64,000 nt of DNA from Escherichia phage vB_EcoM_DalCa: sequence record NC_054908.1. One strand, written 5' to 3'. Positions 59,021 through 63,751 of this stretch are shown here, in pieces. Every line of letters starts with the position of its first letter. The stretch's first letter is position 1. The translations under genes and the position numbers were made by a program. The notes under the pieces were generated by a model, which worked only from the letters and a program-made list of their open reading frames with translations, had not been told where the DNA came from and did not search any database.

Positions 59021-59041
59021 AAATTAAAGGCCCGAAGGCCT

Positions 59042-59230
59042 TTAGTAATCTAGTGGTAAGAGAGTACGATATATTTCAAACTTTGGTCCTTTTTCATAGG
59101 CATCAAATGTTTCTGTAAATTTATTATAAGCGTATGCATCTACAAATTCGAGAATGACTTGTGATACAGAAGTAGAAACATCTCCACCTTCTTTTTGAGC
59201 AATGACAATTGTTTCTAAGTAAGCTTTCAT
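59042..59230 (-). CDS. hypothetical small protein (62 aa)
   Basis: ORF between ligase and alt; start overlaps ligase stop. Confidence 0.5.
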   Translation of the reverse strand: MKAYLETIVIAQKEGGDVSTSVSQVILEFVDAYAYNKFTETFDAYEKGPKFEIYRTLLPLDY

Positions 59231-60690
59231 AAACCAGTTACCTCATGAAAATCACCAAATACATCCTCGAATGTATTAGCTTTAGTTTTATCTTCACGTA
59301 AACGAATCGCAATCGGAAGAAATAATTTAACGTAATCAGTGCGGCCATCAGATTTTAACCAACCGTTGCATTCGCACTCTAGAATTTTTCCAATATAATA
59401 ATTTTGGTTTTCCATAATGCGAGTACGGTCAAGTTCATGTGATTTTACGCCGGCTTTGTCTTTTAAGCCTGAACCAGCATTTACCTTAATTTTTCCACAC
59501 TCTGACTCAAGAATAAATCCACCTGCTTTAGTAGGGTCTTTACGGTGAGGATAAATTCCTACAATTTTTAAATCAACATCAATTACTTCTTTAAATTTAT
59601 AGAGATTTTTTGAACGAGCATTTTCCCATAACCCATCAACGTTTTTGAGAATAATACCTTCAAGACCTTGATCAATATACTTTTTATAAATTACCTTAGC
59701 TTCATCTAGGTTATTTACTACCTGGTTTTCAATTAAAATTACTTTATCATAACCTGATGTCATTTGTTCTAGTTTAGAAAAACGTACATCATATTTCAAA
59801 CGAAATGCAGGAAGACCGTATATTTCTACCAACGGGACATAATCCCAGACCTGAAACTTCATGCATTGAGCTTCTTTTTCAGAAATGGTTCCCTTTAAAG
59901 ATTTATTGGCGATGCCATTAGATGCAGTACGTGATTCAGCTACTTCGGCGAATTCTTTAGCTTTACTAATTTCAGGATAAGCATCAAAAAGAAAATCTAG
60001 GCCTTCTGGCTCCTTTTCAACTTGCTCATGGTATACCAATTCGCCATCAATTAACACACCTTCTGGATGAATCTGGCGAGCTTCTGCAGTCATTTTGATT
60101 AACTCTTCCTTAAGAAGATCTAATCCTAGATATTCATTACCAGCTCGTGATAAAAGACGAACATCATCTAATTCATCACCTCTAACTTCAGCAAAACACC
60201 GAGCTCCATCAGCTTTTAACTGGGCAAAGGCTGGAAATTTGATATTCTTATTAATGCCTTTTTCATCATAAGAACTTGCAAGCATTTGAGGTTGTTCAGG
60301 AATTAAACCTGGCCAAACTTTGTTCGCAATAGATACTGAAGCACCACATTCAAGGTCTCGCATCATCACCCGACGCAAAACTTCAACATCATCTTTTTTA
60401 CCGTCAGTAATATATCCAGTTAATTCCTCAATTGCCGCATTTCCAGTCAATTTCCGAGTAGCTAACGTGAATTCAATGAAGTCAAGCATATCGGTAAGAG
60501 TCAACATTCCAAAACTCTGGGTAGCAATACCCGGTTTAGGCCATTTCTTGATATAATACTGTAACCCACGAGAATAAGTCAGACGATATACTCGTTTAAG
60601 CAATTCATTATCTTTATTCTTTTCAAGAATTGCTTGCTTCTGCTTAGTTGAACCAATAGATGCTATTTCGTTCAGAATTTTAAGAATCAT
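59227..60690 (-). CDS. 30: gp30 ATP-dependent DNA ligase
   Basis: 487 aa; N-terminus MILKILNEIAS; adenylation motif KADGAR. Confidence 0.95.
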   Translation of the reverse strand: MILKILNEIASIGSTKQKQAILEKNKDNELLKRVYRLTYSRGLQYYIKKWPKPGIATQSFGMLTLTDMLDFIEFTLATRKLTGNAAIEELTGYITDGKKDDVEVLRRVMMRDLECGASVSIANKVWPGLIPEQPQMLASSYDEKGINKNIKFPAFAQLKADGARCFAEVRGDELDDVRLLSRAGNEYLGLDLLKEELIKMTAEARQIHPEGVLIDGELVYHEQVEKEPEGLDFLFDAYPEISKAKEFAEVAESRTASNGIANKSLKGTISEKEAQCMKFQVWDYVPLVEIYGLPAFRLKYDVRFSKLEQMTSGYDKVILIENQVVNNLDEAKVIYKKYIDQGLEGIILKNVDGLWENARSKNLYKFKEVIDVDLKIVGIYPHRKDPTKAGGFILESECGKIKVNAGSGLKDKAGVKSHELDRTRIMENQNYYIGKILECECNGWLKSDGRTDYVKLFLPIAIRLREDKTKANTFEDVFGDFHEVTGL

Positions 60691-60956
60691 TGTTCATCCT
60701 TTAGAGTTTGGTTTACAGCTCTATTATAAATCAATTCATCATTAAGCTCAGTCAAAGACCTGTGGTACGTGGTTCTAACTTTATTTCCTTGCATCCAGTG
60801 CTTGACGTAAATGAAACCTTGCTCTACACATTTTTTAAAAATTCGTTCGTCTTTTTGAGCTCGGAATTCTGGATTGCATCTAAAAAATTGATTTACGTGA
60901 CCGTAATCACGTGTAGTATTACCTTCATTTTCATAAATAGTGTGAACAACAAACAT
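60687..60956 (-). CDS. hypothetical protein (89 aa)
   Basis: ORF with translationally coupled junctions in the block upstream of ligase. Confidence 0.6.
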   Translation of the reverse strand: MFVVHTIYENEGNTTRDYGHVNQFFRCNPEFRAQKDERIFKKCVEQGFIYVKHWMQGNKVRTTYHRSLTELNDELIYNRAVNQTLKDEQ

Positions 60957-61810
60957 TAGAATGCTCCTTGGAAAATATTATCACCACTACCACTAGTAAG
61001 TCTATTAAAATACCCTGCGTCGCCAGGCTTAATATAACTCCACGTATGGAATGGATGCATCTGATGTGAGTGTGTATAATATGGATGATATGGATTATAA
61101 GGATTAAATCCAGGAGTTCTCCAAGTAGTGTTCCAACGAAAAGAATCGTTTTTAATCATCTTCTCAATTACATCTTTTATAACTTTTTCACTATCAAAAC
61201 TTTCTTTATTTTCCTTCGATGGAAAAAGCTTATTCTCTACATCATTCCATGTATAAACTCGCTGTGCAGTTTTTGGAATACTGTCACGTTCCCCTCGAGC
61301 CATCCAATAAACAGGAACATTTAATATTTCACTCGCGTGATCGCAGTGGTGAGCGAGATCGTCAATATAACAAATTACGTTATATTTTTCTTTTGCCTTT
61401 TTGAACAACTCTTCTTTTGAAGAATCATGACCACACATCAGTACTTCTGAGAAGGCACCAGGAAAAAGAGCATTCAAATTAAATTGACGATTCAGCAGAG
61501 CGTCAATAGAATCACCCAATGCTGTAACAGCTACAAAATTATAATCTTCTTTTAATTTGTTAATTACACACAGAGCATCTTTATATGGAGACAAGTAACG
61601 AATAAAATCTGAACGATTGTATTTTTCAATTAGCTTGACGCCAAGTTCTTCGTCACAATTAAAGAGTTTACCTGGAGAAATAAATTTCTCATCCTGGATC
61701 ATTTTTAAAATATGTTCTAACGGAAGATTATATTTCTGAGCAAAATAAGGAAGACCTGATTGCCAGCTTAAACATACTCCATCAATATCAGTTAAAATAG
61801 TAGGCTTCAT
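60956..61810 (-). CDS. HAD-superfamily hydrolase-like protein
   Basis: 284 aa; motif I LTDIDGV near N-terminus; His/Tyr/Pro-rich C-terminal tail. Confidence 0.65.
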   Translation of the reverse strand: MKPTILTDIDGVCLSWQSGLPYFAQKYNLPLEHILKMIQDEKFISPGKLFNCDEELGVKLIEKYNRSDFIRYLSPYKDALCVINKLKEDYNFVAVTALGDSIDALLNRQFNLNALFPGAFSEVLMCGHDSSKEELFKKAKEKYNVICYIDDLAHHCDHASEILNVPVYWMARGERDSIPKTAQRVYTWNDVENKLFPSKENKESFDSEKVIKDVIEKMIKNDSFRWNTTWRTPGFNPYNPYHPYYTHSHQMHPFHTWSYIKPGDAGYFNRLTSGSGDNIFQGAF

Positions 61811-62271
61811 AGAGAGTCTCTTAATAGGTTTAACACATCAATAAATTCAGCTTCGGTTAGTATTGTATCATCTTTTGTTAGACCACTAGCCATGCTGTGC
61901 TTCAAAACTTTTCCTTTCGAGGCTTGTAATGCATCACGGAAGCCCTTGTTTTGGATCACTGCTTCAAAATATGCATTTGTGTATAATTCTTTCCACGCCG
62001 GGGAGTATCTTGAAAATGGAACTCCAAGCCAGAAGAGGGTCCCACGGTCCTGAGCTCTAGCATAAGACCTTCCAGCTTGTTGAGCGGCAAGCCCGGATAA
62101 CCCAAATATACGACGTTGTTGTTCAACGTTTTTTACCTTGCATCCTTGGAGGAATCCTTCAAGACCTCCAAATTGAATACCATCCATAACGAAAGGCCAT
62201 TGGGCGAAATTGCTTAATGCACATGATGGCCATCTAAAATTGCTTCTTATCTCTAGCTCAGACATTTTCAA
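61807..62271 (-). CDS. NADAR (YbiA/DUF1768-like) domain protein
   Basis: 154 aa; SNFAQWPF...DG...EGFLQGCK pattern matches YbiA core FSNFAAWP...DG...EHYFQAQK. Confidence 0.65.
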   Translation of the reverse strand: MKMSELEIRSNFRWPSCALSNFAQWPFVMDGIQFGGLEGFLQGCKVKNVEQQRRIFGLSGLAAQQAGRSYARAQDRGTLFWLGVPFSRYSPAWKELYTNAYFEAVIQNKGFRDALQASKGKVLKHSMASGLTKDDTILTEAEFIDVLNLLRDSL

Positions 62272-62464
62272 TACTTATAATTTCAACATCAGCCCAATGA
62301 CCATAGCAAGGAAGACGAAATTCAACTGGCCAGTTAGGGTCCTTTTCTAATATAATAGACTTAACTTGTGGTTCTTCATGTTCATCGGTATACGGACCTT
62401 TATACGTTACTTTATATGTGACCTTAATGTACTGAATTCCAAAAATCTTATTAATTATATTCAT
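62258..62464 (-). CDS. hypothetical protein (68 aa)
   Basis: ORF with overlapping junctions. Confidence 0.5.
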   Translation of the reverse strand: MNIINKIFGIQYIKVTYKVTYKGPYTDEHEEPQVKSIILEKDPNWPVEFRLPCYGHWADVEIISIENV

Positions 62465-63418: not shown

Positions 63419-63751
63419 TTATTTTACTAATTTCCAATGCTTCATGTCAAGTTTGCCAACTTTTTTCATCTTCTCAATTAAGCGTTCGGCACGCTGGCGA
63501 GCTGTAACATAATACCATTCACCCAATTCATTTTGTTCAATTTTTCCAACGATTACTGTATTCAATTCATAAATCCAACCAGTAAAGAAATTATGAACTT
63601 GAATTGTAAAGGTGAAATCTGTTCCCATACCTTCTGTTGTTTCTACTTCAACAATATCACCTTCAACTGCCATTAAGAACCACATAGTTTCATCATATTT
63701 ACCATTGAAGCATTTAGTTTTAACTGCAGCGTTCAGATTAATCGTTTTCAT
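63419..63751 (-). CDS. hypothetical protein (110 aa)
   Basis: ORF preceded by GGAG RBS and early promoter. Confidence 0.6.
   Translation of the reverse strand: MKTINLNAAVKTKCFNGKYDETMWFLMAVEGDIVEVETTEGMGTDFTFTIQVHNFFTGWIYELNTVIVGKIEQNELGEWYYVTARQRAERLIEKMKKVGKLDMKHWKLVK

Follow-up and report, generated by a model that had tools for sequence, protein, structure and literature searches.

Genes 30.3 (adfN) and 30.2 of a T4-like Escherichia phage: a NADAR-fold protein and a probable HAD phosphatase in the gene run leading to DNA ligase

Gene order and coupling at the locus

We analysed a window of 64,000 nucleotides from Escherichia phage vB_EcoM_DalCa (NC_054908.1), a T4-like phage (Tequatrovirus) whose DNA in this region is 97-99% identical to that of hundreds of Tequatrovirus genomes. 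The gene order follows the T4 annotation, 30.7-30.6-30.5-30.4-30.3-30.2-30.1-30 (ligase)-alt.1 (Table 1). It is very probable that the two open reading frames (ORFs) singled out by a first-pass annotation are T4 genes 30.3 (adfN) and 30.2 within a translationally coupled run of early genes, a grading that extends to the whole explanation including the role of gp30.2 given below. Both ORFs are real, lie on the minus strand and carry the motifs quoted for them, SNFAQWPF...DG...EGFLQGCK at amino acids 18-43 of gp30.3 and LTDIDGV at amino acids 6-12 of gp30.2. The first of them had been drawn as 61807..62271, from a TTG at 62271; we place the start two codons in, at the ATG at 62265, as this yields the 152-amino-acid protein annotated in T4 and agrees with the published residue numbering.

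Successive genes overlap or abut, with ATGTCTGA at the 30.4/30.3 junction, ATGA at 30.3/30.2, where stop and start share 4 nt (61807-61810), TAATG at 30.2/30.1 and again ATGA at 30.1/30. A promoter-like site and a terminator-like hairpin are the candidate start and end of the unit, and on the coding strand between them (63450 to 59044) the consensus scan found a single weak terminator-like site. The proposal that both ORFs share a transcription unit with ligase stands, in that the coupled run ends in ligase, although ligase does not directly adjoin them and gene 30.1 intervenes.

Table 1 Features of the 30.4-30 region and its flanks, in window coordinates
Feature	Position	Strand	Remarks
Promoter-like site, sigma-70-like match TTGACA-18-TAAAAT (11/12)	63421..63450	-	upstream of 30.7; consensus scan only
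Gene 30.4	62258..62464	-	stop overlaps adfN start by 8 nt (ATGTCTGA); T4 annotation
Gene 30.3 (adfN)	61807..62265	-	ATG 62265-62263, TGA 61809-61807; 152 aa
Catalytic motif E36-G-F-L-Q-G-C-K43	62137..62160	-	E36 codon 62160-62158, K43 codon 62139-62137
H123 codon, last-strand histidine	61897..61899	-	invariant in alignment
Gene 30.2	60956..61810	-	284 aa; putative HAD phosphatase, C1 cap, helix, disordered tail
HAD motif I, D8-I-D10 (nucleophile, general acid/base Asp)	61781..61789	-	conserved without exception in 28 close and 43 distant members
HAD motifs II-IV	61358..61525	-	T96 61525-61523; K132 61417-61415; D150-D151 61363-61358
Aromatic/Pro/His-rich, low-charge disordered tail, aa 225-284	60959..61138	-	composition; pLDDT
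Gene 30.1 (DUF3045)	60687..60956	-	Pfam PF11243, 2.9e-64; between 30.2 and ligase
Gene 30, ATP-dependent DNA ligase	59227..60690	-	Pfam PF01068, 1.5e-32; T4 annotation
Terminator-like hairpin	59025..59044	-	after alt.1; consensus scan only

AdfN and its place in the NADAR family

The gp30.3 protein of the window is identical to its T4 counterpart at 150 of 152 positions (99%) and is encoded in the same gene order with the same overlaps; the two substitutions, A103V and I125M, are conservative and are not expected to make it functionally different from T4 AdfN. E36, K43, H123 and an intact C-terminal helix are shared with the T4 protein, whereas in RB69 the helix has been lost.

Placement in the NADAR family by profile search, as the first-pass annotation had proposed, gave a mixed outcome. 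Pfam PF08010 was matched far above chance level (E = 4.9e-70; 234 bits, the cut-off being 36), but the NADAR profile PF08719 was not matched even at E <= 10. NCBIfam yielded no match, plain sequence searches of gp30.3 and gp30.2 against PDB chains returned noise only, a word-indexed homologue search for gp30.3 reached close relatives only, and a profile search of gp30.3 against PDB chains put YbiA first but weakly (E = 0.058), aligned over SNFA...E..Q..K. The structural comparison was clearer: with the AF2 model (pLDDT 81.5, pTM 0.80) the top three Foldseek matches in the PDB, and the only significant ones, were YbiA (2b3w) and the NADAR proteins of G. lovleyi (8bat) and P. nicotianae (8bau), with probabilities of 1.00, 0.99 and 0.92. 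A bridging homologue, the fusion protein of viral contig L107 described below, matches both PF08010 (1.5e-39) and PF08719 (1e-3, below threshold). On the strength of the structure and of this homologue the NADAR assignment stands despite the failure of PF08719.

The loss of catalytic residues for which the first-pass annotation had allowed is not seen: E36, K43 and H123 (E38, K45 and H125 if counted from the TTG) are invariant in an alignment of 9 homologues, and together with the fold matches they identify the ORF as a NADAR-fold protein. With DarG1, bacterial and eukaryotic NADARs and YbiA (8bat, 8bau, 2b3w) it has in common the fold, the Glu/Lys catalytic pair and, as published for its T4 orthologue, hydrolysis of ADP-ribose from guanine N2. 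The phage type differs from the DarG1 and YbiA types in being a bare core domain with histidine on the last strand, a phage-NADAR signature at a position that is Glu in the YbiA type and Asp in the DarG1 type (PMC11125620; PMC11543638); it also shows no antitoxin action in uninfected cells and lies beyond detection by PF08719.

T4 AdfN has been published as a DNA ADP-ribosylglycohydrolase of the NADAR family and an anti-DarT factor (Johannesman et al. 2025, PMC11825919; Toxins 2024, PMC11125620). Deletions in T4 and T2 established that it is needed for growth on DarTG1 hosts, and it is sufficient to rescue RB69; the purified protein alone strips ADP-ribose from DNA and is impaired by E36A and K43A mutations (PMC11825919). 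Guanine-ADPr is cleaved and cytidine-ADPr, as published for AdfN and characteristic of the phage type, is not. In an independent published T4 transposon screen under DarTG1, insertions in 30.3 were lost (log2FC -7.25), and those in 30.4 were mildly depleted (log2FC -1.79, q = 0.014), which is consistent with polarity on adfN.

The first-pass suggestion that a phage NADAR could counter DarT toxins is thus borne out by in vitro and in vivo work on the T4 orthologue, which is 99% identical (PMC11825919; PMC11125620), and from this identity we infer that the window AdfN would remove guanine-linked ADP-ribose from DNA. In the mechanism that we propose, host DarT1 would ADP-ribosylate guanine N2 of the phage DNA and so block replication, and AdfN, as a minimal NADAR-fold glycohydrolase, would cut the ribose C1''-N2 bond by means of E36, K43 and the phage-type H123, freeing ADP-ribose and restoring the template. 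That phage NADARs counter DarT is already known, having been shown experimentally between 2023 and 2025, and the window adds nothing new there. AdfN does not, however, protect E. coli against DarT1, its rescue of phages other than the T-evens is slight, and a T-even factor may be needed besides it (PMC11825919), so that the simple picture of a single enzyme is incomplete.

The HAD domain and tail of gp30.2

The neighbouring protein, gp30.2, is 94% identical to T4 gp30.2 and matches PHROG 420, likewise far above chance level (E = 2.5e-90). In Pfam it gave nothing above threshold for NT5C (PF06941) or HAD, and for NT5C the window protein gave no match; among 28 family members sub-threshold matches were found to HAD in 8 and to NT5C in 4 (best 1.2e-4). 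Its AF2 model is confident over amino acids 1-195 (pLDDT >90) and includes a four-helix cap at amino acids 16-65. Foldseek returned 118 PDB matches at E <= 1e-3, the best 50 of which are all HAD-fold; 5'(3')-deoxyribonucleotidases of the cdN/mdN type (2jao, 3bwv, 2i7d) rank highest among these HAD hydrolases, and the BFVD matches include phage proteins annotated as 5' nucleotidases. Beyond the motif I aspartates, K132, D150 and D151 are invariant and T96 nearly so in the 28 close members, and K132 and D151 remain at least 90% conserved across 43 distant representatives reaching down to 23% identity. Catalytic motifs, fold matches and a confident model together make gp30.2 a genuine HAD-superfamily protein, as had been proposed from its motif.

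A profile search against the PDB likewise put cdN (2jao) on top, weakly (E = 0.012), and in this alignment W16, F43, Y64 and F69 of gp30.2 fall on aromatic residues of cdN. The aromatic residues of cdN clamp the base. With the NT5C nucleotidases (PF06941; 2jao, 2i7d, 1mh9, 3bwv) gp30.2 shares the HAD core, a predicted C1 helical cap and the motif DxDGV..(F/W).SGL; it differs in its longer cap, its sub-threshold standing in Pfam, its family-specific invariants W16, R108 and N111 and, in enterobacterial phages, an additional stretch of about 90 amino acids made up of a helix and the disordered tail. Judged by its conserved residues and its model, gp30.2 is probably an active, Mg2+-dependent HAD phosphomonoesterase, and since 5'(3')-deoxyribonucleotidases have a similar helical cap and similar aromatic residues in the pocket to those predicted here, it most likely acts on a small molecule resembling a nucleotide and not on DNA ends.

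The tail, described as unusually rich in His, Tyr and Pro, is indeed so: H, Y, P, W, F and N make up 50% of amino acids 225-284 against 24.5% of the HAD domain, while charged residues make up 10% against 26%. It is predicted to be disordered (pLDDT 36-53, AF2), and comparison with T4 shows indels of 15, 3 and 6 nt, all in frame. Among homologues the tail is clade-specific or absent, a G-I-E-Y-x3-Q-P-T motif recurring in 16 of 57 long ones. The tail probably docks the protein to a partner. A sliding-clamp-binding motif at the C-terminus (...DNIFQGAF) was considered and dropped, as the C-terminal residues are not conserved in homologues, and long proteins from an exhaustive search, which might have been informative as fusions, carried no further Pfam domains.

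Transposon data show that T4 30.2 is non-essential, with insertions at 72 of 72 TA sites, and that these insertions are neutral under DarTG1 (log2FC -0.12, p = 0.61); this makes gp30.2 an unlikely candidate for the additional T-even protein. We propose that gp30.2 would act separately from AdfN, being dispensable in the laboratory and not required for the anti-DarTG1 activity of AdfN. Members of the family come almost exclusively from phages. A scan of 185,579 species genomes with a narrower alignment found 4 loci of the gp30.2 type, all in MAGs and none with ligase. One MAG, from Rickettsiales, carries three tandem gp30.2 paralogues in a housekeeping context uninformative on function. No papers were retrieved when the literature was searched for 'gp30.2'.

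Relation of gp30.2 to AdfN and to ligase

Counted over 6 kb on each side of the locus, 30.2 tracks DNA ligase more tightly than it does 30.3. In 67 of 77 gp30.2 loci, across distant T4-like lineages, ligase follows downstream within 700 nt and on the same strand, whereas gp30.3 is missing within 6 kb from 41 of the 77, and about 10 of 30 gp30.3 loci have no gp30.2 nearby. In the loci without gp30.3 no Macro, ARH or NADAR substitute was found upstream of gp30.2, the genes there being small unknowns or gp32-like.

The two kinds of domain do occur in one polypeptide elsewhere. On viral contig L107 a single protein joins a gp30.3-type NADAR to an NT5C HAD (PF08010 1.5e-39, PF06941 7.6e-15), in the N-to-C order NADAR then HAD that is also the order of the T4 genes, and such fusions are present in at least 120 protein clusters, KptA/Tpt1 being carried as well by 22 of the 120 listed. 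Across the fusions neither domain varies at its catalytic residues. By hhalign their NADAR is a member of the gp30.3 family (probability 100%) and their HAD is distant from gp30.2 (probability 48%, E = 1.9e-4); their neighbours are genes for RNA ligase, kinase/phosphatase and ADP-ribosylglycohydrolase, forming RNA-ligase repair cassettes. The fusions, which stem from Bacteroidales MAGs or viral contigs of gut metagenomes, resemble T4 in NADAR family, domain order and a neighbouring nucleic-acid ligase, and differ from it in being one polypeptide rather than two genes, in having a canonical NT5C HAD and in lying beside an RNA ligase in an RNA-repair context. A further gp30.3 homologue, L106, is overlapped instead by a gene for an HD phosphohydrolase.

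These fusions are a new lead. Because they keep the T4 gene order inside RNA-ligase repair cassettes, a pathway shared by NADAR and HAD remains plausible, and our separation of gp30.2 from AdfN may be wrong. In such a pathway gp30.2 would be the working partner of AdfN in a two-enzyme module that removes nucleotides bearing ADP-ribose, or by-products of ADP-ribose that carry phosphate; N2-ADP-ribosyl-dGMP, phosphoribosyl adducts and ADP-ribose-1''/2''-phosphate are examples. Replication of the DNA, and its sealing by the ligase encoded nearby, could then proceed. The translational coupling of 30.3 and 30.2 through ATGA agrees with this, as do the number, conservation and ligase-adjoining context of the fusions, the HD phosphohydrolase overlapping the L106 homologue, the documented ADP-ribosylation of guanine in mononucleotides (published) and the coupling of HAD 5'-nucleotidases to ADP-ribose-releasing enzymes (Iyer et al. 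2022). Against it, 30.2 insertions are neutral under DarTG1, AdfN works alone in vitro, the two genes are often found apart with no upstream substitute for the hydrolase, and the fusion HAD is only distantly related to gp30.2. We therefore regard the partnership as possible but doubtful; of the first-pass idea that the two proteins act together, the natural NADAR-HAD fusions speak for it, and the neutrality of 30.2, the self-sufficiency of AdfN and the 41 loci lacking 30.3 speak against it. Its more general form, in which NADAR and an NT5C-like HAD constitute a conserved two-step clean-up module, as overlapping genes in T4-like phages and as fusions, some of them including KptA/Tpt1, in elements associated with gut Bacteroidales, with a nucleic-acid ligase adjacent in both, seems to us rather unlikely. 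If it were true, there would be a second class of ADP-ribose damage for gp30.2 to act on, outside the reach of DarTG1 plaque and transposon assays.

The tight synteny with ligase also invites a role in end healing, gp30.2 being a polynucleotide 3'-phosphatase of the PNKP HAD-like type that prepares nicks for the adjacent enzyme, and some phage polynucleotide kinase/phosphatases do appear among the BFVD fold matches. PNKP-type phosphatases are generally capless. The gp30.2 model has instead a four-helix C1 cap typical of small-molecule HAD enzymes, and nucleotidases rather than PNKP head its fold matches; its Pfam match to HAD_PNKP (PF25109) is weak and below the cut-off (E = 0.17, 12.5 bits against 27.6), so that it does not fit the PNKP type. 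T4 moreover already encodes PseT, and 30.2 is non-essential whereas ligase is essential, all of which renders end healing improbable. That gp30.2 is a catalytically inert scaffold whose tail is the functional part, a notion favoured by the tail staying in frame despite indels and by the recurrence of short clade-specific motifs, is very improbable given that all catalytic HAD residues are retained, motif I without exception, across 43 sequences down to 23% identity and that many family members have no tail.

We favour gp30.2, a member of a widespread, almost phage-only HAD family, as a probable small-molecule phosphatase separate from AdfN. The pairing of gp30.3-type NADARs with a phosphohydrolase beside a ligase recurs, and explaining it together with the role of the gp30.2 family could reveal a second step in the repair of ADP-ribosylation damage; it might also help with a puzzle noted in the literature, namely that AdfN is fully effective only in T-even infection.

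Gene order and transcription around 30.2 and 30.3

The region shares 97-99% DNA identity with hundreds of T4-like (Tequatrovirus) genomes and its gene order follows the T4 map (alt - alt.1 - 30 (ligase) - 30.1 - 30.2 - 30.3 - 30.4 …), all genes lying on the minus strand. The two ORFs singled out by the first-pass annotation correspond to T4 genes 30.3 (upstream) and 30.2. The 30.3 ORF exists as claimed, although its start moves from the mechanical TTG at 62271 to ATG 62265 (152 aa), on which T4 annotation, homologues and published residue numbering all agree. Its stop does overlap the start of 30.2 (Table), and both genes lie upstream of ligase; the small gene 30.1 (DUF3045) intervenes, however, so ligase is not directly adjacent to 30.2. 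Consensus scanning placed only one weak terminator-like site, with a poor T tail, between a strong sigma-70-like site and a terminator-like hairpin, an arrangement consistent with, without proving, the suggested single transcription unit with ligase (63450 to 59025). The T4-annotated out-of-frame internal gene 30.3′ has ACG in place of ATG and contains an internal stop, and is probably no real gene in vB_EcoM_DalCa.

Neighbourhoods vary elsewhere. Two T4-like genomes have a gp30.3 homologue directly overlapping the ligase gene, gp30.2 not lying between, with an HNH/NUMOD4 homing-endonuclease-like gene upstream. Immediately upstream of the gp30.2 homologue in three KVP40-like, distant T4-like genomes of ~230 kb (L041, L048, L056) lies a putative gp32 gene, whose product looks like the ssDNA-binding protein from its acidic C-terminus and size.

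Table. Coordinates of features in the window and in compared loci (L-numbers; own coordinates)
Feature	Position	Strand	Sequence	Basis
Gene 30.4	62258-62464	minus
Gene 30.3′	61902-62129	minus
Gene 30.2	60956-61810	minus
gp30.2 tail, aa 225-284	60959-61138	minus
Junction 30.4/30.3		minus	ATGTCTGA
Junction 30.3/30.2		minus	ATGA
Junction 30.2/30.1		minus	TAATG
Junction 30.1/30		minus	ATGA
Sigma-70-like site, strong	63450-63421	minus (coding)		consensus scan
Weak terminator-like site	62129-62113			consensus scan
Terminator-like hairpin	59044-59025	minus (coding)		consensus scan
NADAR (gp30.3-type)-NT5C fusion	L107:3478-4440	plus
NADAR (gp30.3-type)-NT5C fusions	L113/L114:6001-7512; L115:6001-6987
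HD-domain gene and gp30.3 homologue	L106:6001-7177	plus
gp30.3 homologue overlapping ligase	L102 and L103:5995-7957	plus
Three tandem gp30.2-type paralogues	L109:4947-6982	plus

Gene 30.3 and the NADAR fold of AdfN

The product of 30.3 is identical to T4 gp30.3 (AdfN) at 150 of 152 residues and matches Pfam PF08010 (E=4.9e-70). The first-pass annotation had called it a NADAR protein, naming failure of a profile search beforehand as grounds for rejection. The Pfam NADAR model PF08719 indeed gave no match even at E<=10, nor did a PDB sequence search, so that membership is formally not established at the sequence level. A profile of nine gp30.3 homologues nevertheless put YbiA at the top, aligned along the SNFA…E..Q..K segment, and one homologue matches PF08010 as well as, below threshold, PF08719. 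An AlphaFold2 model (pLDDT 81.5, pTM 0.80) had exactly three meaningful PDB fold matches, all NADAR proteins: E. coli YbiA (2b3w), the Geobacter lovleyi protein (8bat) and the Phytophthora protein with ADP-ribose (8bau). The predicted structure thus settles the question of the fold. The feared loss of catalytic residues was not seen: E36 and K43, together with the phage-type H123 of the last strand, are invariant in the gp30.3 alignment (residue roles from PMC11825919, PMC11125620, PMC11543638).

The proposed anti-DarT role is already published for T4. Deletions of adfN in T4 or T2 abolish plaques on hosts carrying DarTG1, whose DarT1 toxin ADP-ribosylates guanine in phage DNA; RB69 is rescued when adfN(T4) is supplied in trans; function is impaired in the E36A and K43A mutants and after C-terminal truncation; and purified AdfN takes ADP-ribose off DarT1-modified DNA (PMC11825919). 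The T4 enzyme cleaves guanine-ADPr and not cytidine-ADPr. Loss of the C-terminal helix inactivates the RB69 allele (PMC11825919); the DalCa protein retains this helix. In an independent T4 transposon screen under DarTG1, the log2 fold change of 30.3 was -7.25. Insertions in 30.4 were also significantly depleted (-1.79, q=0.014); since the end of 30.4 and the start of adfN share 8 nt, this probably reflects polarity or translational coupling, a contribution of 30.4 itself being the less favoured reading. This part of the first-pass annotation is correct and already known, and the initial interpretation was largely right.

Gene 30.2 as a predicted HAD-type phosphatase

The HAD assignment of gp30.2 (PHROG 420, of unknown function) holds by motif and fold, although no Pfam family scored above threshold. 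Motifs I (D8xD10GV), III (K132) and IV (D150D151) are invariant among 28 homologues and II (T96) nearly so; in a wider set of 43 representatives, with identities as low as 23%, D8, D10 and R108 are invariant and W16, N111, K132 and D151 at least 90% conserved. The AlphaFold2 model (pLDDT above 90 over aa 1-195) has a four-helix cap after motif I; beyond the HAD domain come one more helix (aa 207-220) and a tail predicted to be disordered. PDB fold searches returned HAD-fold hydrolases, with the 5′(3′)-deoxyribonucleotidases 2jao, 3bwv and 2i7d ranking first or close to it and best by target-normalised TM-score; the hits in a viral structure library were orthologues and phage proteins that carry a 5′ nucleotidase annotation. 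Sub-threshold matches within the family were to PF00702 (8/28) and NT5C PF06941 (4/28), and HMM alignment to cytosolic deoxyribonucleotidase puts W16, F43, Y64 and F69 on aromatic positions of that enzyme; in the cytosolic and mitochondrial nucleotidases (cdN/mdN) these positions make up the base-binding clamp. Together, modelled fold and family evidence point to a capped, nucleotidase-like HAD phosphatase. Capped HAD architectures generally go with small-molecule substrates, and the predicted cap argues for such a substrate rather than a DNA end; the sole hint of a PNKP-type phosphatase was a 12.5-bit match.

The unusual tail pointed out in the first-pass annotation is real, with 50% H/Y/P/W/F/N and 10% charged residues. 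Compared with T4, only indels of 15, 3 and 6 nt, all in frame, and point changes set it apart, so that the reading frame is maintained. Tails are clade-specific or absent among homologues; a G-I-E-Y-x3-Q-P-T motif occurs in 16 of 57 long ones and has diverged from G-I-E-Y…Q/R-P-T to D-A-G-Y…R-L-T in vB_EcoM_DalCa. We infer that the tail might be a docking element.

The family comprises 1524 representatives (E<=1e-3), with only four bacterial loci, all MAGs, among 185,579 species scanned. One of these very few non-phage occurrences is on a contig of a Rickettsiales MAG, where three paralogues stand in tandem with housekeeping genes around them (pseudouridine synthase, CrcB, DegP-like protease, ferritin, L17). 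T4 30.2 is non-essential, with insertions tolerated at 72/72 TA sites.

Possible joint action of AdfN and gp30.2

That the two proteins act together, as the first-pass annotation proposed, is contradicted for DarTG1 specifically: T4 AdfN is active alone in vitro (PMC11825919), and 30.2 insertions were neutral under DarTG1 (log2FC -0.12, p=0.61) while 30.3 insertions were lost. Gene neighbourhoods also speak against an obligatory partnership. Only 36 of 77 viral gp30.2 loci have gp30.3 within 6 kb (immediately adjacent in 22), whereas in 67 a co-oriented ligase gene follows within 700 nt; loci without gp30.3 have no Macro, ARH or NADAR gene in its place. Conversely, gp30.2 is missing from the vicinity of gp30.3 in about 10 of 30 loci, and in two of these gp30.3 directly abuts ligase.

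A shared pathway draws support from fusion proteins. One 320-aa protein on a viral contig has PF08010 (1.5e-39) and, C-terminal to it, NT5C PF06941 (7.6e-15), an architecture found in at least 120 clusters; among the 120 best listed, 22 have an extra N-terminal KptA/Tpt1 domain. Catalytic residues are invariant in both domains of the fusions, the NADAR domain falls within the gp30.3 family (hhalign probability 100%, E=6e-41), and the NADAR-HAD order is that of the T4 genes. The RNA-repair-like cassettes in which the fusion genes lie (RNA ligase, HD+AAA_33 (P-loop) kinase/phosphatase, methyltransferase, ADP-ribosylglycohydrolase) repeat the NADAR-phosphatase-ligase neighbourhood of T4. In another locus an HD-domain phosphohydrolase gene (PF01966 6.4e-12) overlaps the 3′ end of a gp30.3 homologue, a different phosphohydrolase in the position held by gp30.2 in T4. 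Kinship between the fused HAD and gp30.2 is only remote, however (hhalign probability 48%); the pairing is analogous and no simple gene fission.

Weighing both sides, we consider co-action in a common pathway possible though rather unlikely. If true, it would imply a shared substrate other than DarT1-modified phage DNA; speculatively, ADP-ribosylated or phosphoribosylated mononucleotides or phosphorylated ADP-ribose. Searches of the literature, as far as it is searchable, turned up no account of the NADAR-phosphohydrolase-ligase association for T4 30.2. With the central point on AdfN already published, the remaining interest lies in the gp30.2 family and in the recurrence of this association.
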